In this document: positions 5,865 to 15,206 of the stretch, piece after piece | Layout of the letters: each line of letters begins with the position of its first letter | Numbering within the stretch: the first letter of the stretch is position 1 | Assembly (NCBI GenBank): GCA_016235455.1 | Contig: JACRKZ010000114.1 | Coordinates: 1 to 15,206, forward strand | Direction of reading: 5' to 3' | Length of the DNA stretch: 15,206 nucleotides | DNA from: Armatimonadota bacterium | GTDB lineage: Bacteria; Armatimonadota; UBA10988 | The notes under the pieces: model-generated | Databases searched by the model: none | What the model was told of the DNA's origin: nothing | The model's input: only the letters and a program-made list of their open reading frames with translations | Translations under genes and position numbers: made by a program

Positions 5865-7916
5865 TCACAGCGCGGGCTTGAGTCCTTCCCAGCGCACCGT
5901 CCACGAGCCGTCGTCGGGGAAGCCTGGCGCTGGCCGGGCCGGTGCGCCGTCCCAGCCGGCGGCCATCATGGCCACGGCATAGAGCAGGCCGCCGTTGCCC
6001 GGCAGATACGGACACGGGCCACCGGTGTTGATGCCGCGCTCGTCGTAGTGGTTGCGCGGTGAATCCGCCAGCAACGCATCGACGGCGGTCTTGGGCTCGC
6101 CGACCCGCGCGGCGGCCATGGCCATCCAGGGGAAGTCCCAGCCCCAGCAGCGGCCCCATTGCCAGGAGGTCCAGACCTTGTTGACCGTGCGATGCGCGGT
6201 CTCGGGGTCTACGCCGTCGATGGGTGGCAACATGCCCAGCACGCCGATCGGGTCGGGATGCTCCCAGTTGCGCTTCTGGTAGGTATCCAGCCACTCGGCC
6301 GAATGGCAGAACAGACCATCGCGCTCTGGCAGCGGCGCCAGCCCGCGGCGCACCTCGTCCCAGTGCGGCTCGCGGGGCAGGCCGAGCCGCTCGCGCCAGC
6401 GCTGGGCCAGGTCGAGGCCGAACCGCCAGTAGGCCAGGTCGAACACCGTGTCGCGCGTGAAGCCTTGCTCGCTGGGCGGCATGTCGGGCGTCAGGTGGTA
6501 GAGGCCGTCCGCGCCGCGTTGGGCGAAGTCGGCCATGTGCTCGGCCGTGCCTTCGAGGACCGGCCACCACAGGTCGAGCGTGGCTCGCGTGGGCTTCGCA
6601 CGGTAGGCCAGCTCGGCGAAGAACATGGGGTGTGGCTGCTTCCAGAGCAGTGCCTGGTTGCCCGACCACGGTGCGCTGCGGCCTTCGGGACCCACCGACT
6701 TGGGCCACTTGAGCCCACGCAGACCCAGTTGCTCGGCCAACGCGCGCGCGGCCGGGGTGAAGCGCTGATAGCAGGTCAGCGCCTGCTCGGCGCGGTCCCA
6801 GCGGCCCCACAGCGCGTAGTGCGCCAGGTGCCACCAGGCCATCTCCATGTGGAACTGGCCGCGCCACGGGTCGAGCCCCAGCAGGCCGGTCTCGGCGCAG
6901 GGCCAACTGCCCGCCTGCTGCGCGCCCATCTGATACTGCGACAGCACCACGCGGCGCTCGAGCTCGCGCCAGCGCTCGTCGCGACTGCCCGACAGGTCGA
7001 TCGCGCCGCCCGACTGCCAGTAATCGGCCCAGCGTTTGGTGGTCGATTGCAGGCATTCGGTCACGGTCGGCACGGCGGCGGTGTTGGCATTGAGGCCGAA
7101 GCGCGCGGTCAGTTCCAGCGCGTCGGAGTGGGCCAGCACCTGGTAGCGATGTGGGCTGTCGGTCGGCTCCAGCGTGGCGCTCGGCGACCAGGCCAGGTTC
7201 ACGTCGTAGCGGCTGGCATCAACCTCGCGCGACAGTGTGGCGCTGCTGGCCGAGGGCCGGATCAAGCGGGTCACATGACCGTCGGCGCGGCCAAAGTCGC
7301 CCACGGACGGGGTGTTGTCGAGCGTCGGGTAGCCGAAATCGAGCGTCACGCGCAGCGTGCCGTCGGTCAGCAGCGGGCTGCTGATGCGCACGGCCACGGC
7401 GTCCTGCTGCCCGTGCACGGCGGTCTCGACAATGACCGGCCGACCGTCGACACGGTACTCGGCGGTGTGGATGCCGGTCCACAGATCGAGCCGGCGCGAG
7501 GCCTCGGTGAGTTGGCCAGCGGTGACCGCGCGGCCATCGGCGCGGCTCAGGCGCAGCCGGCCCAGATTGAGCCGGTGCGGGTTGTCGAACAGCCAGGCGC
7601 GCAGCGCGTCCTGGCCCGGCGGGAAGTGGTCGGGACCCGTGGGCCGGCCCTTGGCCAGCGTGCCGGTGGCAGGTACCTGGTCGGGCGTAATGCCGGCGGG
7701 CAGCGCGAAGCTGTGCCAGCCCCAGTGCGCCATGGTGTTGCCGGCCAGCGTCTGCAGGCCGGTGCCGTCGAGGCCGACACAGAACTCGCCATTGCCTACC
7801 GGCCAGACGGTGCTGGCGCCGCCGGCCATGGCGTGCCGGCTGACGATGGCGTGGCGGTCCAGCGGGGCCTGCTCGGCGGTGGCGAGCAGGCCCAGGAGCA
7901 GGTAGACAGGCGGCAT
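5865..7916 (-). CDS. Secreted six-hairpin (alpha/alpha)6 glycoside hydrolase-like protein (GH65/GH95-like architecture), 683 aa
   Basis: Short hydrophobic N-terminus, PVGNGEF, and a beta-rich N-half (RRLDLWTG). The Trp-rich helical C-half contains ELERRVVLSQY, FHMEMAWWH, WKQPHP, WGWDFP and YLPGNGGLL. The exact GH family cannot be assigned by eye. Confidence 0.75.
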   Translation of the reverse strand: MPPVYLLLGLLATAEQAPLDRHAIVSRHAMAGGASTVWPVGNGEFCVGLDGTGLQTLAGNTMAHWGWHSFALPAGITPDQVPATGTLAKGRPTGPDHFPPGQDALRAWLFDNPHRLNLGRLRLSRADGRAVTAGQLTEASRRLDLWTGIHTAEYRVDGRPVIVETAVHGQQDAVAVRISSPLLTDGTLRVTLDFGYPTLDNTPSVGDFGRADGHVTRLIRPSASSATLSREVDASRYDVNLAWSPSATLEPTDSPHRYQVLAHSDALELTARFGLNANTAAVPTVTECLQSTTKRWADYWQSGGAIDLSGSRDERWRELERRVVLSQYQMGAQQAGSWPCAETGLLGLDPWRGQFHMEMAWWHLAHYALWGRWDRAEQALTCYQRFTPAARALAEQLGLRGLKWPKSVGPEGRSAPWSGNQALLWKQPHPMFFAELAYRAKPTRATLDLWWPVLEGTAEHMADFAQRGADGLYHLTPDMPPSEQGFTRDTVFDLAYWRFGLDLAQRWRERLGLPREPHWDEVRRGLAPLPERDGLFCHSAEWLDTYQKRNWEHPDPIGVLGMLPPIDGVDPETAHRTVNKVWTSWQWGRCWGWDFPWMAMAAARVGEPKTAVDALLADSPRNHYDERGINTGGPCPYLPGNGGLLYAVAMMAAGWDGAPARPAPGFPDDGSWTVRWEGLKPAL

Positions 7917-7919
7917 GGG

Positions 7920-8687
7920 CTAGACCTTCGAGAAGTCCGTCGGCGCGAGCACCGTACTGGTGATGTGCGAGACGATGTTCTGGTATTCGGGCTTGCCCGA
8001 CATGGTCTTCCACTCGGGGTCGGCGCCGAACGCCTTCCAGCCGGCGGCGCGCGCGGCGTCGTTCTCGCAGGTGATCATGTAGGTCAGGTTCGGCATGGCC
8101 GCCCCGGCCAGCGTCTGACCAAAGAACACGGGCGCCAGCCCCGCGCGGGCGAAGATGGGGATCTCGCCGTTGTTGAACATGTCGATCTTCTTGGCCGCCG
8201 AGCGCTCGTTGTGGCTCTCGTAGCAGCGCAGTTCGAAGATACGCGGCTTGTCCAGCTTGGGCACGGCGAGGCGCGGCTGACCGGTGAAGGCCAGCATCAG
8301 CGAGCTCTCGACCCGCTTATAGAGCGGATCGGCCGGCGGGAAGTCCAGGTACGGCGCGGCCGCCTTGGCGAATTCGGGGTCGGCGCTGAGCATGTTGACC
8401 ATGGCGATGGTCTCAGGCGAGCCGTGCACGGCCAGCACGAAGACCACGGGGTCAGGCCCCTCGGTGACGGGCTTGAAGACGCCGACGGGCATCACGTCCA
8501 GCCGGTCCAGCGCCGGCAGCAGCGCCGTCTTGAGGTACGCGTCGAACGCGGCTTGCCGCTCGCCGGCCTTGAGCGTGTAGCGCCGCAGTTCATAGAGGTC
8601 GCGGCCCTCCAGTCCCGCTTGTGCCTGGGCCGCGCTGGCCGCCAAGGCCGCCGTGCCGGCGGCCGCTACGAAGGAACGCCTGTCCAT
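7920..8687 (-). CDS. NIPSNAP family protein with Tat signal peptide, 255 aa
   Basis: Twin-arginine leader MDRRSFV...ASAAQA. Two NIPSNAP-type halves start at LYELRRY and IFELRCYESH; also PNLTYM and W..F..DPEW. GGAG RBS present. Confidence 0.88.
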   Translation of the reverse strand: MDRRSFVAAAGTAALAASAAQAQAGLEGRDLYELRRYTLKAGERQAAFDAYLKTALLPALDRLDVMPVGVFKPVTEGPDPVVFVLAVHGSPETIAMVNMLSADPEFAKAAAPYLDFPPADPLYKRVESSLMLAFTGQPRLAVPKLDKPRIFELRCYESHNERSAAKKIDMFNNGEIPIFARAGLAPVFFGQTLAGAAMPNLTYMITCENDAARAAGWKAFGADPEWKTMSGKPEYQNIVSHITSTVLAPTDFSKV

Positions 8688-8725: not shown

Positions 8726-9004
8726 CTACTCCTGCCCGGCAATGCGCGCGCGAATCGCCGCTACCAGCGCATCGAACTCGGCCTGGGTGGTGATCGAGTC
8801 GACATCACCCGCGCCGCCAATACAGCGGGACAGGTAGTTCATGGCGCGCACGAAACGGCCGGTGACCATGTCCAGCGCCAGCACGTCGAGGCCGCCGTCG
8901 CCCGTCGGCACGAGCTGGACGGGCCGGTCATTGACGGTGTAGAACGCCGGTGCCGGCGGGGCGGGTCGGGAACTGACGGCGTAGCGATTCGATTTGGCGC
9001 GCAC
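8726..9004 (-). CDS. Hypothetical small cytoplasmic protein, 92 aa
   Basis: GTG start with AGGTGA upstream, GC3-rich codons and globular composition (FYTVNDRPVQLVPTGDGGLDVLALD...GRF). It fills the gap between NIPSNAP and the divergent operon. Confidence 0.75.
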   Translation of the reverse strand: MRAKSNRYAVSSRPAPPAPAFYTVNDRPVQLVPTGDGGLDVLALDMVTGRFVRAMNYLSRCIGGAGDVDSITTQAEFDALVAAIRARIAGQE

Positions 9005-9134: not shown

Positions 9135-11471
9135 ATGGTCTGCTGGCGGCCGTACCTTCTGGTGATGGTGTTGGGCTGGGCGACGGTCGCACCCGGCCTG
9201 GAGCTGCGGCCCGACGACTGGCAGGACCGCAGCGTCGACGGCCAGGTCGCCTTCGCGGACGGCGTTGTGACGCTGTCGGTGCCCAAGGGCTCCGGCGGCA
9301 CCGCCGAACTCGTCGCCAAGGCACCGGTCAACGGTGATTTCCAGGTGACCGTCAGCTACCGGCTCGAGGCCTGGGTCACCGGGCCCGACGCCACCCTCGG
9401 CGCGCATCTGGGCCTGGCCGACGGCGATGAGGCCAAGGCGCAAGTGCTGGTCGGCCGCGGCTGGGAGCGCACGCTCGACGAGTACGCCGGGATGACCTTC
9501 CGCGACGGCCAGTGGCGCTCACGCTTCGCCACGCTCACGGACGACCGCGAGGGCAAGTTGCAGATCCTCCGCCGCCTGGGCCAGATCCGTGTGGCCGTGC
9601 AACGCGGACATGGCTGGCAGACGCTGGCCATGCTCGACTGGGATCCGCGCGCACCGCTCTTCCTGCGGCTGGGCGTGGTGACCGGGCCGACGGGCACGGC
9701 ACAGGTGCCCGCGGCGGCGGTGCGCTTCGAGAAGCTGACGATTGAGCAGTTGCCCGACCTGCCCAAGCCCGGCACCGGCGCCGCCGGCGGGGCCACGGGC
9801 GACGCTGACCGTGACTGGCTGGTCTGGGCCAACGACCTGGGCTGGCTGCACGTGGGGTCACGCGCGCAGTTCAAGGCCACCACGCCGCGCCGGGCCGAGA
9901 TCCTCGGCGGCCAGGGCGAGGAGCCGCTGGTCAACACCGAACTGCAGGGCGGATTCGAGAACCGCGACAAGGTGCTCGACTGGTTGTGCGAGCGGCTGAC
10001 TCGCGTGGTCGTGGCCTACGACCCCACCGGTGCGCCGCACGAGATCGTCGCCGCGCGCCTGGAGGGCAAGGACTACCGGCTGCGGCTGGTTGGCGGCAAC
10101 GACCCCGAAGCGCTGACCATGGCCGAGAACTACGACTTCGAGGGCGAGAAGGCGGTGCTCGCCGCGCACGGGCTGACCCCGCGTTGCAGCTATCGCCGGC
10201 TGTGGCTGGTCCACGCGCTGGGCCACTCCACGGTGGATGGCTGGGCCGTGGACAACCGCTGGACCACTTTCTCATCGCCGCCGCAACCCCTGGAGAAGGA
10301 GCCCCAGAAGGCATCGTTCGAGGTGGCCGACGGGTTGGGTGGCACGTTCACCTACGTTGCCGACCAATGGGAAGGCCCGTACCGCGACAACTACGGCCTG
10401 GCCGTGGCCATGCGGCGGCTGGGCATCGTCGACGAGGTGCCCATCTTCCCGCCAGCCAGCAACTACCAGCGCAAGCTCAAGGCCGCCGATGTGCCCGAGA
10501 AGCCGCGCGACTTCGGCACCGAAGTGCTCGGCGTGCAGCCGTTCGCCGACCCGCCCGGCTTGCGCGACTGGGTGGTCTACGTGACCGGCGGCGTCTGGCT
10601 GCATATCGGCACCCGCACCGAGTACGACCAGCCGGTGACCCGCGCCGAGACGCTGCTGGCCGGCGACGGCCAGGACGCTGTGCCCAAGAAGCTGGTCGAT
10701 CTGGGCCGCCGCTTCGGCAGCTACGACAGCGCGCTACGGGCGCTGGTCAAGCAACTGACCGACGTGCGCTCGCGGTTCAGCCCGACATCGCAGCCGCGCG
10801 AGGTGGTCGTGGCCAGCCTGGCCGGCGCCGAGGTGGCGGTGCATCTGGCGCGGGACCCCGAGGCGTTGGTGGCCGGCTACGGCGGCTACAACTATGGCGC
10901 CGAGCTGGCGCTGCTGCGCTCGGTGGGCCTGGGCGTGCGCAAGACCTTCGGCGCGCAGCGGCTGGTCCACGCCACCGGTCACGGCACCATGAACGGGCCG
11001 GTCAAGGACGACTTCTGGATGATGGTCAAAGGCGAGCCGCGCGGCGGCAACTCCATCGAGCTGCCGGACGGCATGGGCGGCACGTTCGGCTACTCGCTCG
11101 ACCAGGTCGAGGGACCGTTCACCGACAGCTTCGGGCTCGTGCCCGCATTGGTGGCCCATGGCCTGAAGAGCATCGGCCTGTACGGCGAGGATCGCGGCGT
11201 CGGCCTGCTGGATGGGCCGCCGCCCGCGCCGCCACCACTGACGCCGCCGCGCATTCTGGCCATCACGCCCGACCGCGGCGAGGCGGGCCACAGTTTCTAT
11301 GTCACGGTCATCGCCGAGGGCATGAGGCCGGGCTACGGCTTTGCCTTCGGGCCGGGCGTGCTGGTCAGTGACGAGACCTGCCTGGGCCGCAACCCCGACG
11401 GGCCGGGCGAGCGTTGGCTGGCCACGGTCACGCTGGACCAGGGCACCGGCTTCGCGCCGGTCGCGCCGTGA
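9135..11471 (+). CDS. Exported multidomain hypothetical protein, 778 aa: signal peptide, ConA-like beta-sandwich, two tandem unknown domains, Pro linker, Ig/IPT-like domain
   Basis: GGAG RBS at 9124-9127 and a hydrophobic leader. GDFQVTVSY, KLQILR.GQI and VRFEKLTI suggest a ConA-like fold. The internal duplication is clear. PPPAPPPLTPP is followed by RILAITPDRGEAG, an IPT/TIG-like start. Confidence 0.85.
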   Translation: MVCWRPYLLVMVLGWATVAPGLELRPDDWQDRSVDGQVAFADGVVTLSVPKGSGGTAELVAKAPVNGDFQVTVSYRLEAWVTGPDATLGAHLGLADGDEAKAQVLVGRGWERTLDEYAGMTFRDGQWRSRFATLTDDREGKLQILRRLGQIRVAVQRGHGWQTLAMLDWDPRAPLFLRLGVVTGPTGTAQVPAAAVRFEKLTIEQLPDLPKPGTGAAGGATGDADRDWLVWANDLGWLHVGSRAQFKATTPRRAEILGGQGEEPLVNTELQGGFENRDKVLDWLCERLTRVVVAYDPTGAPHEIVAARLEGKDYRLRLVGGNDPEALTMAENYDFEGEKAVLAAHGLTPRCSYRRLWLVHALGHSTVDGWAVDNRWTTFSSPPQPLEKEPQKASFEVADGLGGTFTYVADQWEGPYRDNYGLAVAMRRLGIVDEVPIFPPASNYQRKLKAADVPEKPRDFGTEVLGVQPFADPPGLRDWVVYVTGGVWLHIGTRTEYDQPVTRAETLLAGDGQDAVPKKLVDLGRRFGSYDSALRALVKQLTDVRSRFSPTSQPREVVVASLAGAEVAVHLARDPEALVAGYGGYNYGAELALLRSVGLGVRKTFGAQRLVHATGHGTMNGPVKDDFWMMVKGEPRGGNSIELPDGMGGTFGYSLDQVEGPFTDSFGLVPALVAHGLKSIGLYGEDRGVGLLDGPPPAPPPLTPPRILAITPDRGEAGHSFYVTVIAEGMRPGYGFAFGPGVLVSDETCLGRNPDGPGERWLATVTLDQGTGFAPVAP
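9810..11165 (+). repeat. Protein-level tandem duplication of a ~200-aa domain (copies at about 9810-10427 and 10563-11165)
   Basis: Collinear matches: RDWLVW/RDWVVY, WLHVGSR/WLHIGTR, DPEAL/DPEAL, LVHALGHST/LVHATGHGT, DGLGGTFTY/DGMGGTFGY, DQWEGPYRDNYGL/DQVEGPFTDSFGL. Confidence 0.9.
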
Positions 11472-11482
11472 GGAGGCCCACC

Positions 11483-14400
11483 ATGCGCCGCACCGTCCTC
11501 GCTCTGTTGCTGCTGACCAGCGCGACCTGGGCCGAACGGCCGCAGGGCCCGCAGATAGGCCGGTCGCCCTCGGCCGTCCTGGACGACCAGGGCCAGCGTG
11601 TGGGCACCGGGCCGGAACTCGGCATCCTGGGCCCGGCGCCCAAGCCGCCGACGCCGACGGCCGCGGCGCCTGACACGTGGGGCGAGGCCACGCGCTGGGT
11701 GGCGGCGTTCCTGGAGCAGTTCGGCCTGCTCGACCATGACATGCAGGTCATCGGCTTCATGCTGCGCGCCAACGTGCTGGCCATCCGCGAGTTGGAGGCC
11801 GAGATCGCCGGTAACGAACGTCTGCTGGCTACGGCGGTTCGCGCCGACCTGCGCGAGGTGCTGCAACGCGCCATCGACCGTGCCAAGGGCGATCTGGCCG
11901 AGCTGACCCGCGAGCGCGACGAGCGGCTCAACGCCGCGCTCGAGCGCTGGACCAACCTGCACGCCAGCCTGGCCGACAAGATCGCCGAGAGCGCGGACAA
12001 GCCCGAGGTCAGCGCCATGCTGACCAAGCTCGAGACCGTGCTTCAGCGGCGTCAGACCATTGGCGAGTTGACGCTCTATCTGCAGGCCGGCTACGCCGAG
12101 CGGTTCCGCACACTGGCCGGCGGCGCCGAGCAGGATCCCGCGCTGGCACCGCATGTGCTGCTGCTGCGTGTGCAGGACCAACTCGACGGTGGGCACCTGG
12201 CCAATGCGCTGCTGATGGCGCGCGACGGCGCCCAACGCTACGCCGACCAGGCCATCGGCAAGTCCTTCGCGGTGCAGGCGCAGTCGCTCGATGTGGCCTA
12301 CATGAAGGCGCTGGCCGACACCTTCGGGCGCGAGTCCGACCAGATCCAGAAGGCCTGGTCCAACTACTCGGGGCAGGTCAGCGACAGCTACATCAAGCAG
12401 TTCTTCACCGGCAGCATGAGGCACAGCTTCGAGTACTACGCCGGCCGCACCGACCGGCTGGCGGCGCTGGCAGGCGAGGAGGCCGACCAGCGCGCCATGG
12501 GCGGCCACGGCCTGCAGGTGATGATTCGTCTGCGCGATGCGGGCCTGAGCTTCAAGGAGATCATGGCGCTCGATGGTGATGGCATCCGCTCTGCCTTCAA
12601 GCAGAAGCTGGGCGCGGAGGTCAGCTTCGAGACGGCGGACATGATGAACACGGCGGTCTCGGTGGCGCTGCGCGACCAGCGGCTGATGAACATGGTGCGC
12701 GGCGACAAGGTCGCCAGCGAGGCCGACCTGCGCGCGGGTTGGGCGGGCAAGGCGGAGTTCGAGGACGGGCTGCTGGCGCACGCGGCCGACGCGATAAACG
12801 TGAAGAACGCGCTGCTGCTGCTCGGGCCGGGCGCGGTGGTCAGCTCGGCGGGCACAGGCGCCAGCCTGACGGCGCGGTTCGCGCAGGTGGTGGGTCGCGG
12901 TGTCAGCGGCGCCGAGCGCATGGAGGCGCTGTTCGGTACCGGGCTCGACGGCGCGGTCACGGCGCGCGACTGGTTGTCCTCGGCGGCGCGGCTGCCCGAG
13001 GTGGCCGGCGCGCTGGCCAAGACCAAGACCGGCGCCGCGCTGCGCGACGGCCTGAACACCTGGTTCTCGGCACGCTATGACGGGCCACTGGCGGCGCGCA
13101 TCGCCATGGGCGCCGAGGGTCTGGTCGCCGAACTGGCCATCTTCGAAACCGCCGGCCGCGCGGGCAAGGCGGTCGGCGGCCAGGTGGGCGAGTTCTTTGG
13201 CCAGGCCATGGCCACGCTTGTGGGCAACCCCGCGGAGTTGGCGCACCAGGCCTTCGGCAAGGCGCGCACGGCCGCCGTGGCGGCCACCATGGCCGAGTTC
13301 CGCGCCGCAGAGCGCGGCCGCGCGCTGGCCCGGGAAGTGAGTCAAGCTGGCCAGACCGTGGATGACGCTGCCAGCCGCCTGACTCGTGGCGAGACCCTGT
13401 CCGCCGATGAGCTGGCTAGGGTCGAGGAAGCCTCGGCCACGGCGCGACGGGTGGAGCAGGAGGCGCTCGCCGTGGAGCAGCAGGCCGGCGGCCCCGGCCC
13501 CAGTTCGAGCACGCGCGGTCCCATCGAGCAGGCGCAGGCGACCGACGGGCTGGCGCAGGCGGTGCGTCGCGGCGACGCCGAGGCCGTGCAACTGGCGCAG
13601 CAGACGTCGCAACGGCTGGCTGGCGCCGGCGAGGAGGCGGCAGGCGCGGTCCGTGAGGCTGAGTCCGGCCTGCAACAGGCCTCGCAACGTGTGGCCGAGG
13701 CGCCCGCCTCGGGCGCTTCGGCCGCGGGCAGCGACGGCCCGCTGGTCAACGACGCCGCGACGCCCATTCGCACCAAGGTGCCCAACTCAGCCGACCTGGG
13801 CTCGGGCGCCCGGGCCCAGGCGGCGGTGGGCAGCGCGCCCAGCGCGCCGCCGCTGAAGCTGGCGCGCAACGCCATGCGCGCGGGCGAGTTCGGCGAGGCC
13901 GAGGCCTGGTACCGCCAGGCGGCACTCAACCCCGAGCTCAACGCCGAGGATGTGAAGCTGGTCCGAGCGGGCATCACCGAGGCTCGGCAGGCACAGCGCT
14001 ACGCGCGCATCCTGGCCGAACGCGCCGAGGCGCCGTGGATCGGCGAGGCACGAGCGCGCGCGGACAAGGCGCTGGAGCCACTGTCGGCCGATGAGAAGGG
14101 CTACCTGTCGGGCTTGGATGTCAACCAGCAGACGCGCTTCTCAGACTTCTTCGGCACGGAGCCGACGGCCGGCGGGCCGCGCGTGGTGTTCGACCGCGAG
14201 GGCCGCATGATGGGCCTGTGGAAGCCCGCGGCGCCGCCCGGCGGGGCCGGCATCCAAGGCATGCCCGACGATGGCAACCTGGTCAGCGAGGTGTTCGTCT
14301 CGCGGCTGGCCAAGAAGCTGGGCCTCAACGTGCCCCGTGCTGAGCCGGTGAGTATGCTGGGCGTCGGCGGCCGGACGGTGGACGGCGTGTTCATCCGCTG

Positions 14401-15061
14401 GGTGCCAGGCACGCACATCGTGCATAAGCTCGAGCCCGGGGCCCGCGCCGTGCTGGCCGAGCAGATCGCCGCCTTCCGGGCGCTGTCGGCCTACACGGGC
14501 AACTACGATGTGCACCTGGGCAACTACCTGGTCGATGGCTCGGGCCGCGTGTGGGGCATCGACTTCGGCAACGCGGCGTTGGGCAAGGTGCCCGTGGAGG
14601 ACGCCAACATCCTGCGCCAGATCATGCATGTGCCAAACTACCCGCTGAGCGGCGACCAGGTGGTGGACGAGGCCCGGCTGCTGCGCGATGCCTACACCTA
14701 CCGCAAGGTTACCCCCGGCACCTTCAACCCCAAGGCGGTGACCATCGAGCAGGGCGACTTCTACAAGGAGGAGGTGGCCTATCTCGACCGCCTGCTGCCG
14801 GCGGCCAAGATGACCAAGGTGGCCGACGGCGTGCGCGACCTATCGGCGGGCGAGATCGAGACTCTGTTGCAGGGCACGTTGCGCCGCGGCTCCGAGGCGG
14901 CCAACAGCGAGGCGGCCAAGGAGATCGCCGAGCATCTGGCTGCGCGCGGCAAGAGCATCGACAAGATCATCGACACCTGGAAGTCGACCGACAAGCTGGA
15001 CTCGGACGTACTGGTGCCGGCCGGCGCGGGGCCGCAGCGGACACCGACGGTCGGCGGGTAG
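11483..15061 (+). CDS. Large exported protein, 1192 aa, with coiled-coil/TPR-like helical body and C-terminal HipA/PI3-PI4K-like atypical kinase domain
   Basis: AGGAGG at 11471-11476 and ATG at 11483. Sec-type leader MRRTVLALLLLTSATWA. Kinase motifs LWKP (K914), SEVFVSRLAKKLGLNVP (E936), YDVHLGNYL (D1009) and IDFG (D1027). Confidence 0.85.
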   Translation: MRRTVLALLLLTSATWAERPQGPQIGRSPSAVLDDQGQRVGTGPELGILGPAPKPPTPTAAAPDTWGEATRWVAAFLEQFGLLDHDMQVIGFMLRANVLAIRELEAEIAGNERLLATAVRADLREVLQRAIDRAKGDLAELTRERDERLNAALERWTNLHASLADKIAESADKPEVSAMLTKLETVLQRRQTIGELTLYLQAGYAERFRTLAGGAEQDPALAPHVLLLRVQDQLDGGHLANALLMARDGAQRYADQAIGKSFAVQAQSLDVAYMKALADTFGRESDQIQKAWSNYSGQVSDSYIKQFFTGSMRHSFEYYAGRTDRLAALAGEEADQRAMGGHGLQVMIRLRDAGLSFKEIMALDGDGIRSAFKQKLGAEVSFETADMMNTAVSVALRDQRLMNMVRGDKVASEADLRAGWAGKAEFEDGLLAHAADAINVKNALLLLGPGAVVSSAGTGASLTARFAQVVGRGVSGAERMEALFGTGLDGAVTARDWLSSAARLPEVAGALAKTKTGAALRDGLNTWFSARYDGPLAARIAMGAEGLVAELAIFETAGRAGKAVGGQVGEFFGQAMATLVGNPAELAHQAFGKARTAAVAATMAEFRAAERGRALAREVSQAGQTVDDAASRLTRGETLSADELARVEEASATARRVEQEALAVEQQAGGPGPSSSTRGPIEQAQATDGLAQAVRRGDAEAVQLAQQTSQRLAGAGEEAAGAVREAESGLQQASQRVAEAPASGASAAGSDGPLVNDAATPIRTKVPNSADLGSGARAQAAVGSAPSAPPLKLARNAMRAGEFGEAEAWYRQAALNPELNAEDVKLVRAGITEARQAQRYARILAERAEAPWIGEARARADKALEPLSADEKGYLSGLDVNQQTRFSDFFGTEPTAGGPRVVFDREGRMMGLWKPAAPPGGAGIQGMPDDGNLVSEVFVSRLAKKLGLNVPRAEPVSMLGVGGRTVDGVFIRWVPGTHIVHKLEPGARAVLAEQIAAFRALSAYTGNYDVHLGNYLVDGSGRVWGIDFGNAALGKVPVEDANILRQIMHVPNYPLSGDQVVDEARLLRDAYTYRKVTPGTFNPKAVTIEQGDFYKEEVAYLDRLLPAAKMTKVADGVRDLSAGEIETLLQGTLRRGSEAANSEAAKEIAEHLAARGKSIDKIIDTWKSTDKLDSDVLVPAGAGPQRTPTVGG

Positions 15062-15147: not shown

Positions 15148-15206
15148 ATGTCCAGCGGGGGAAGCGATCTACTGGCCGAGGAGGCAAGCGAGGCCTGGCA
15201 GCCGAC
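15148..15206 (+). CDS. Possible 5' start of a downstream gene, truncated by the window edge
   Basis: ATG at 15148 reads MSSGGSDLLAEEASEAWQP to the edge, with a -10-like TACACT at 15096-15101. Too short to verify. Confidence 0.3.
   Translation, partial: MSSGGSDLLAEEASEAWQP

Follow-up and report, generated by a model that had tools for sequence, protein, structure and literature searches.

Results

The window encodes a predicted exported kinase

The 15,206-nucleotide contig JACRKZ010000114.1 of an Armatimonadota bacterium (GenBank assembly GCA_016235455.1), which was analysed whole and is referred to here as the window, carries on its + strand a gene (11483-15061) for a protein of 1192 amino acids (aa) that combines a predicted Sec-type signal peptide with a C-terminal kinase-like catalytic domain of the type II PI4K, CtkA and HipA type. 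The kinase fold and the intactness of its catalytic residues are well supported, because homologue searches, residue conservation, AlphaFold2 (AF2) modelling and fold searches agree with one another. The protein is probably exported from the cytoplasm, judging by an N-terminus that recurs across the family, and we lean weakly towards its acting in another cell.

Fold and catalytic residues of the kinase domain

The domain was placed at residues 870-1170 (14090-14992, + strand; residues are counted from the Met encoded at 11483) using the AF2 model and the fold searches. Modelling of the C-terminal ~320 aa with an alignment gave a predicted local distance difference test (pLDDT) score of 89.1 and a predicted template modelling (pTM) score of 0.87; the AF2 model from the single sequence, with a pLDDT of 34, was unusable. 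A Foldseek search against the PDB returned 172 matches at E<=1e-3, and all 44 of those listed are kinases or kinase-like proteins, with PI4KIIalpha first (4hnd_B, E 1.8e-6, TMq 0.53), followed by CtkA and HipA. Structural alignment with VIA-align against 48,161 chains also placed PI4KIIalpha first (4pla_A, Z 17.0, root-mean-square deviation 3.8, 239 residues aligned), ahead of CtkA (3akj_A, 14.4), CotH (13.0), actin-fragmin kinase (12.1), Fam20 (12.0), HipA (11.3) and MavQ (10.3), and all 50 rows listed are kinases or kinase-like proteins. Among viral structures, the domain was best matched by phage head-morphogenesis, portal or ADP-ribosyltransferase fusion proteins. At the level of sequence, a phmmer search of the PDB with the single domain gave chance matches only, and a profile of 25 family members gave 132 matches at E<=10 (best E 0.0011), among which all 60 listed are PI4K (PI4KA), PI3K, Vps34 or DNA-PKcs; they align over the catalytic loop and DFG, with DRHxGN paired to DRHNGN and IDhG to IDFG. 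These results bear out an earlier interpretation of the window made from the letters alone (the sequence-only reading), which had proposed an intact HipA/PI3-PI4K-like kinase domain and had named a Foldseek search of the C-terminal domain as a check.

Residue conservation was counted in a 58-sequence alignment, with smaller denominators at the Lys and Glu positions. The beta3 ATP-binding lysine K914 (GLWKP, 14222-14224) is Lys in 44/46 sequences and Arg in the other 2, and the helix-C glutamate E936, within SEVFVSRLAKKLGLNVP (14288-14290), is present in 48/48. In the catalytic loop D1009-V-H1011-L-G-N1014 (14507-14524), which aligns to DRHNGN of PI4KA, the Asp and the Asn are found in all 58 sequences and the His in 50/58, and in D1027-F-G (14561-14569), aligned to IDFG of PI4KA, the metal-binding Asp is again found in 58/58 and the Gly in 55/58. 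All four motifs thus lie exactly where the sequence-only reading had put them (Lys 14222, Glu 14288, DxHxxN 14507-14524, DFG 14561-14569) and in the order expected. A bilobal fold carrying the Lys, Glu, DxHxxN and DxG in that order places the domain in the protein-kinase-like superfamily, on its PI3/PI4-kinase-HipA branch.

The same reading had remarked that the loop reads DVH instead of the more usual DRH. The loop does read DVH, but this is not peculiar to the window protein: the position after the catalytic Asp is Arg in 26/58 sequences, Val in 12/58 and Ile in 10/58, a split that makes DVH a clade trait within the family. The motif is GNYD[VI]H in the near clade, and the distant clade has the canonical GDHDRH (GDHDRHMGNYL...IDHG).

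An unannotated family with a patchy distribution

Scanning the whole kinase protein against Pfam, NCBIfam and PHROGs gave nothing above threshold. The segment 14150-14701 had sub-threshold matches only, all to kinase-clan models: APH (E 0.052) and PI3_PI4_kinase (E 0.24) at the catalytic loop, and CotH (E 0.3) and HipA_C (E 0.33) at the helix-C region. The window protein reached 11.7 bits against the gathering cut-off of 27.1 bits for PI3_PI4_kinase (PF00454), 11.0 bits against 30.5 for HipA_C and 11 bits against 23.8 for CotH (PF08757), and no match to a Fam20 model was listed in the family-library scans. By sequence and model, the domain is a predicted PI3/PI4-kinase/HipA-type phosphotransferase, nearest to type II PI4K and CtkA, and by these thresholds it falls outside PI3_PI4_kinase, HipA_C and CotH. 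When 46 of the 65 relatives described below were scanned with Pfam, six passed the PI3_PI4_kinase threshold (P0048, P0055, P0056, P0060, P0029 and P0036) and three, all distant, passed a HipA model (HipA_C or HipA_2); the close clade (P0003-P0023) had no Pfam match at all. Since Pfam and NCBIfam hold no model for the family, it goes unannotated.

An exhaustive phmmer search of 1.84 billion representatives with the last 323 aa found 66 proteins at E<=1e-3, the query included (65 relatives), and 34 of this set reach E<=1e-10; the library representative P0002 (1192 aa) is identical to the window protein. Word-indexed homologue searches returned only the protein itself within length windows of 656-2088 aa and 177-566 aa, a single-protein search of genome contigs returned no relative, and a metagenome scan gave one locus only. 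Among 401 sampled genomes of the window's phylum, eight match the full-length protein, including 3/5 of the other genomes of its own family, and 15 match the domain profile. In the phylum of genome G401, 21/401 genomes match, mostly through a separate ~285-aa form (open frames of ~273-317 aa in 18/401 genomes, L032-L053), and in that of genome G403 the count is 3/401. Family members occur in Armatimonadetes/Fimbriimonadaceae and in metagenome-assembled genomes (MAGs) of Vicinamibacterales (Acidobacteriota), Planctomycetota and Victivallales.

The whole architecture, and not the kinase alone, is common to the close relatives (P0005-P0009, P0015, P0020 and others). Some distant exported relatives carry N-terminal CAP, GH20b or HEAT modules, and relatives of ~5000 aa without a signal peptide combine NUDIX with several kinase domains. 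Distant relatives of ~1070-1560 aa from the same phylum (L080-L083, L085 and L086; genomes G297, G229, G140, G273, G960 and G848) have the kinase near the C-terminus and have neither a signal peptide nor the Ala-Ala tail described below; proteins of ~1540 aa are among them; their N-termini and neighbouring frames appear prophage-like as read by us, with no family search made on the neighbours. In the open-access literature we found no description of a Sec-exported bacterial kinase family of this kind, and the passages seen of a survey of kinase-like proteins (bioRxiv 10.64898/2026.09.18.752743) report other new kinase-like families and do not mention this one.

The N-terminus resembles a conserved signal peptide

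The kinase open reading frame (ORF) spans 11414-15061 on the + strand, and the likely start is the ATG at 11483, six nucleotides ahead of which lies a ribosome-binding site, GGAGG (11472-11476), directly 3' of the TGA (11469-11471) of the upstream gene. Translation from this start gives 1192 aa, with no Cys, before a TAG stop. Residues 1-17 (MRRTVLALLLLTSATWA, 11483-11533) form a predicted Sec-type signal peptide in which n-, h- and c-regions can be read: it contains two Arg and a hydrophobic core, and T-W-A provides the small-x-small site, with predicted cleavage before E18 (mature start ERPQ). The best mean Kyte-Doolittle value over 10 residues in this N-terminus is 2.53.

The call was made by inspection, a crude hydrophobicity rule and conservation, the rule asking for a hydrophobic 10-mer of >=2.0 in the first ~70 residues with Lys or Arg ahead of it and no acidic residue. 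By this rule, 23/29 Met-starting relatives of 1000-2000 aa have a signal-peptide-like N-terminus; among the remaining 6/29, five look like signal peptides by eye, their starts being uncertain. A signal-peptide-like N-terminus is, at the sequence level, a conserved feature of the family, and the Sec signal peptide that the sequence-only reading had assigned to the kinase protein holds to that extent.

A conserved partner gene lies directly upstream

The gene directly upstream (9135-11471, + strand), coding by its G+C at third codon positions (GC3), encodes a 778-aa protein with a signal-peptide-like start, hereafter the partner. It contains two copies of a ~250-aa unit with the invariant motifs HATGHGT..GPVKDD.W and DG.GGTF.Y..D..EGP; its C-terminal region may be Ig-like. 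No match was found in Pfam, NCBIfam or PHROGs, and a PDB profile search gave no relative. The partner family is small, with 10 proteins including this one, of which one relative bears a precomputed DUF1583 (PF07622) label; the partner protein of a relative from the window genome's own taxonomic family is labelled Fimbriimonadaceae.

In 5/5 close loci with upstream DNA (L015, L016, L017/L022, L021 and L026), the gene immediately ahead of the kinase gene encodes a partner homologue of 45-54% identity; these loci come from two phyla, one locus being from an Acidobacteriota (Vicinamibacterales) MAG. The partner is thus better conserved than the kinase protein (45-54% versus 30-38% identity). It is missing from seven loci of distant members (L018, L019, L020, L025, L054, L055 and L056). 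No conserved neighbour other than the partner was found in the loci compared, no HipB- or HipS-like antitoxin neighbour was found in the window or at those loci, and no type IV secretion context was found in the window. A protein with a zinc ribbon and a PQQ-like beta-propeller adjoins the kinase gene in two loci (L015:13309-14619, - strand, and L020:13998-15266, - strand); at one locus the two genes are convergent, and at the other the propeller gene immediately precedes the kinase gene.

Regions outside the kinase domain

Between the signal peptide and the kinase domain lies a conserved N-terminal region (residues 18-640, 11534-13402) that is mostly helical by sequence character and can be aligned over its full length with P0005-P0009, P0015 and P0020. 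A PDB profile search with this region found no significant sequence relative, and the scores of an Atlas search (0.80-0.81) were at chance level. Two conserved segments of moderate hydrophobicity (residues 444-462 and 536-554, hydropathy peaks 1.39 and 1.46) are followed by a glycine-zipper-like stretch, AGRAGKAVGGQVGEFFGQAMATLVGNP, the whole spanning 12788-13231. K441, N442, G448, P449, G558, G561, G565, G566, G569, G581 and P583 do not vary among 13 sequences. The conserved patterns in the middle of the region, VKNxLLLxGPGAVV and the glycine-zipper-like GxxGKAVGGxxGEFxGQAxxxLxGNP, recall membrane-inserting hairpins, and from their sequence character we infer that these segments may have a membrane role. 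A linker rich in Ala, Glu and Gln (residues 641-790) and a TPR-like pair of helices (residues 791-869) occupy 13403-14089, with a weak match to TPR_2 (E 0.14) and, in the PDB profile search, a weak match of this region of the profile to the Sec72 TPR (E 0.0048). The C-terminal tail (14993-15058) ends ...PTVGG, and its pLDDT is 49-55 in the last three blocks.

Ala-Ala tails and PDZ neighbours of the relatives

A C-terminal ...AA end (LRPAA, LPLAA, LALAA and the like, among P0006-P0067) was seen in 30/65 relatives. Downstream DNA could be read in 13 loci, and in two of these the next gene encodes a PDZ domain above the Pfam cut-off: L016 (3841-4884, - strand; PDZ_2, E 7.5e-8) and L054 (7922-9724, + strand; PDZ_2, E 1.6e-17, plus TPR). 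The next gene of L019 (6404-8371, - strand) encodes NPCBM and a sub-threshold PDZ (19.6 versus 23.2 bits), and that of L018 (12720-13625, + strand) encodes a protein homologous to the L016 product, without a PDZ match. The kinases of L016, L054, L019 and L018 end APAA, TVA, LRAA and RQAA, respectively, and the PDZ proteins encoded next to the kinase in some loci are exported.

Because PDZ domains bind C-terminal tails, the AA tail may be a signal for envelope docking or for processing, as a PDZ ligand or as a mark for a tail-specific protease. This idea does not apply directly to the window protein, which ends ...TVGG, no alternative frame restoring an AA end. When the window's own genome was searched for a homologue of the PDZ neighbour, nothing beyond a weak match of generic PDZ type (E 8.5e-4) was obtained. 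Complex prediction for the L016 PDZ protein with the kinase tail of that locus scored 0.00, which counts neither way.

Coding character and neighbouring genes of the window

The window is a whole contig of 15.2 kb from a 6.5 Mb genome that is 93% complete in 185 contigs. Its G+C content of ~0.69 (0.66-0.75 along its length) makes spurious ORFs plentiful, and real genes were told apart by a GC3 frame plot, by which the + strand genes are 9135-11471 and the kinase ORF. Across 11400-14850 the coding frame of the kinase gene has a GC3 of 0.85-0.96 and a G+C at second codon positions of 0.39-0.61. The minus-strand neighbours encode an aminotransferase, a sugar epimerase-like protein, a family-2 glycosyltransferase and a NIPSNAP protein. 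A divergent pair (5865-7916, - strand, and 7920-8687, - strand) encodes a protein of 683 aa, whose GH65 N-terminal-like match is weak and below the cut-off (E 2.8e-4), and the 255-aa NIPSNAP protein; a 92-aa ORF (8726-9004, - strand) that separates the NIPSNAP and partner genes has a coding-like GC3 phase and no Pfam match. Downstream of the kinase gene, an unrelated gene starts at ATG 15149 (15149-15206, + strand), begins MSSGGSDLLAEEASEAWQP without a signal peptide, and is cut by the contig end, which lies 145 nucleotides past the kinase stop. Sequencing runs with matching DNA are groundwater and freshwater metagenomes, and no RNA run matching the gene was listed in the sequencing-run search.

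Discussion

Kinases need ATP, and to our knowledge ATP is available only inside cells; the bacterial periplasm is usually considered to be without it. If Sec exports kinases with intact catalytic residues throughout a conserved family, this would imply either secreted effectors or toxins, or phosphorylation outside the cytoplasm. Between the two we tentatively favour a secreted effector or toxin that acts in another cell over a kinase resident in the envelope, while stopping short of calling it probable. Under this proposal the kinase gene would be co-transcribed with that of the exported 778-aa partner, the kinase protein would be exported by Sec and then leave the producer cell, the N-terminal hydrophobic and glycine-zipper segments would serve binding or membrane passage, and the kinase would be the warhead, phosphorylating a lipid or a protein inside another, ATP-containing cell.

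Several observations favour action in another cell. The domain occurs in a cargo-like context, as seen in the phage fusion matches, the giant NUDIX/multi-kinase relatives and the prophage-like proteins; CtkA, the closest bacterial structure, acts on host cells; the distribution is patchy and crosses phyla in the manner of an accessory gene, the gene pair being shared with a Vicinamibacterales MAG; the protein has 0 Cys in its 1192 aa and conserved hydrophobic and glycine-zipper segments at residues 444-583; and the search of six gene-carrying genomes for a TLC ATP/ADP translocase, a weak one as explained below, was negative. Other observations weigh on the opposite side. The loci compared hold neither a conserved immunity-like gene beside the kinase gene nor a conserved small gene downstream, and no secretion route past the inner membrane, beyond Sec, was identified. 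In the phylum scan, matches to the N-terminal region are always followed by the same kinase or by a contig end, and because the region is always joined to the same kinase, the architecture is not that of a polymorphic toxin. The CAP and GH20b modules and the exported PDZ neighbours of relatives are no less compatible with an envelope-resident protein. A translocation role for the N-terminal region is a guess, and the kinase activity of the domain is itself predicted from sequence and model.

The foremost rival is an extracytoplasmic kinase that remains at the cell surface or in the periplasm, where its targets would be envelope or secreted molecules of the producing cell itself; it would be a bacterial counterpart of Fam20 or CotH, with the partner as its substrate or co-factor; this we regard as a genuine possibility, if one we doubt. 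The sequence-only reading had taken the fold to be normally that of cytoplasmic toxins or delivered effectors. HipA and CtkA are indeed among its structural neighbours, but so are Fam20 (Z 12.0) and CotH (Z 13.0), kinases of the secretory pathway or the extracellular space; these two stand among the closest folds and favour an envelope kinase. The conserved signal peptides, the conserved and presumably exported partner, the N-terminal CAP or GH20b domains of some relatives, the AA ends in 30/65 relatives and the PDZ-encoding next genes in 2/13 loci point the same way. Against it, no periplasmic ATP source was found: the TLC ATP/ADP translocase gave 0/6 in the gene-carrying genomes (its own and those of five relatives), a weak negative because the family also gave 0/14 in control genomes and the search had no positive control. 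The window protein also has no AA tail, the contig stops within the gene downstream of it, and the patchiness of the distribution counts against a core function in the envelope. A more specific form of the idea, on balance unlikely, is a bacterial extracytoplasmic phosphorylation system in which the Sec-exported kinase would be held in the envelope, in many relatives docked through its ...AA-COOH tail to the neighbouring exported PDZ protein, and would phosphorylate envelope or secreted substrates as Fam20 does. If true, it would mean an unrecognised nucleotide supply outside the bacterial cytoplasm.

Kinase-like folds can catalyse AMPylation or glutamylation, and the scarcity of ATP outside the cytoplasm might favour a donor other than ATP, so that the exported domain could perform another chemistry, such as nucleotidyl transfer, or serve as a non-catalytic scaffold. 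Both activities of kinase-like folds are noted in the KINtaro abstract. We consider this improbable, since the canonical phosphotransfer residues stand in the standard order and are strictly conserved; this pattern does not hint at a flipped nucleotide, and it makes a pseudokinase less likely. It is very improbable that the signal peptide is non-functional and the protein a cytoplasmic kinase or toxin; the signal-peptide call was made by inspection and a crude rule, as this alternative would have it, but a strong ribosome-binding site lies at the start, a hydrophobic N-terminus with preceding Arg or Lys is found in 23/29 relatives and, by eye, in five of the other six, and no antitoxin-like neighbour is present. 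That the motifs match by chance and the region is not a kinase domain is scarcely credible and has been refuted as far as computation allows, for although no Pfam or NCBIfam model passes its threshold on the window protein and the single-sequence fold has a pLDDT of 34, the homologues, PDB profile, AF2, Foldseek, VIA-align and residue conservation all indicate a kinase fold with invariant catalytic residues.

Both a set of secreted kinases serving free-living Armatimonadota, Acidobacteriota, Planctomycetota and Victivallales as effectors or toxins and, alternatively, extracytoplasmic phosphorylation would be new biology for little-studied phyla, and the family offers experimental handles in the conserved 778-aa partner and in the pairing of AA tail and PDZ among the relatives.

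Set beside known systems, the protein differs from polymorphic and AB-type toxins in that its N-terminal region, in the phylum scan, does not carry varied C-terminal toxin domains and no downstream immunity gene accompanies it at the loci compared. With Pfam PI3_PI4_kinase (PF00454) it shares an alignable catalytic-loop and DFG region; where the canonical loop of that family is DRHxxN, the window protein reads DVHLGN, with V in the place of R beside unchanged D, H and N. HipA and HipT (3dnv, 4pu3, 7ab3) lie on the same branch of the fold (Z 10.2-11.3) and share the DxHxxN loop, whereas the window protein falls below the HipA_C cut-off, has no HipB or HipS neighbour and is predicted to be exported and not cytoplasmic. 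Fam20 and CotH (5yh0, 4kqa, 5jda) resemble it in combining an atypical kinase fold (Z 11.6-13.0) with export, here a predicted one, but there is no family match at the sequence level, and the translocase search found no ATP supply for the window protein; Fam20 is reported to work in the ATP-supplied Golgi lumen (PMC7948968). CtkA of Helicobacter pylori (JHP0940; 3akj, 3akk), the second-best fold (Z 14.4, Foldseek E 2.2e-6), is likewise a bacterial kinase that acts outside its producer, and its pro-inflammatory activity on gastric cells is reported to need the Tfs3 type IV secretion system (PMC5536186). CtkA is a stand-alone, type IV-linked protein of ~300 aa (chains of 275-296), whereas the window protein has 1192 aa, a predicted Sec signal peptide and a 778-aa partner. 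PI4KIIalpha (4pla, 4hnd) is a eukaryotic lipid kinase of the cytosolic face with an identity of only 15-18%, compared with which the window protein is bacterial, has a predicted signal peptide and places ~870 unrelated residues ahead of the domain; it is nevertheless the best structural match, with the Lys, Glu, catalytic loop and metal-binding Asp in the same order.

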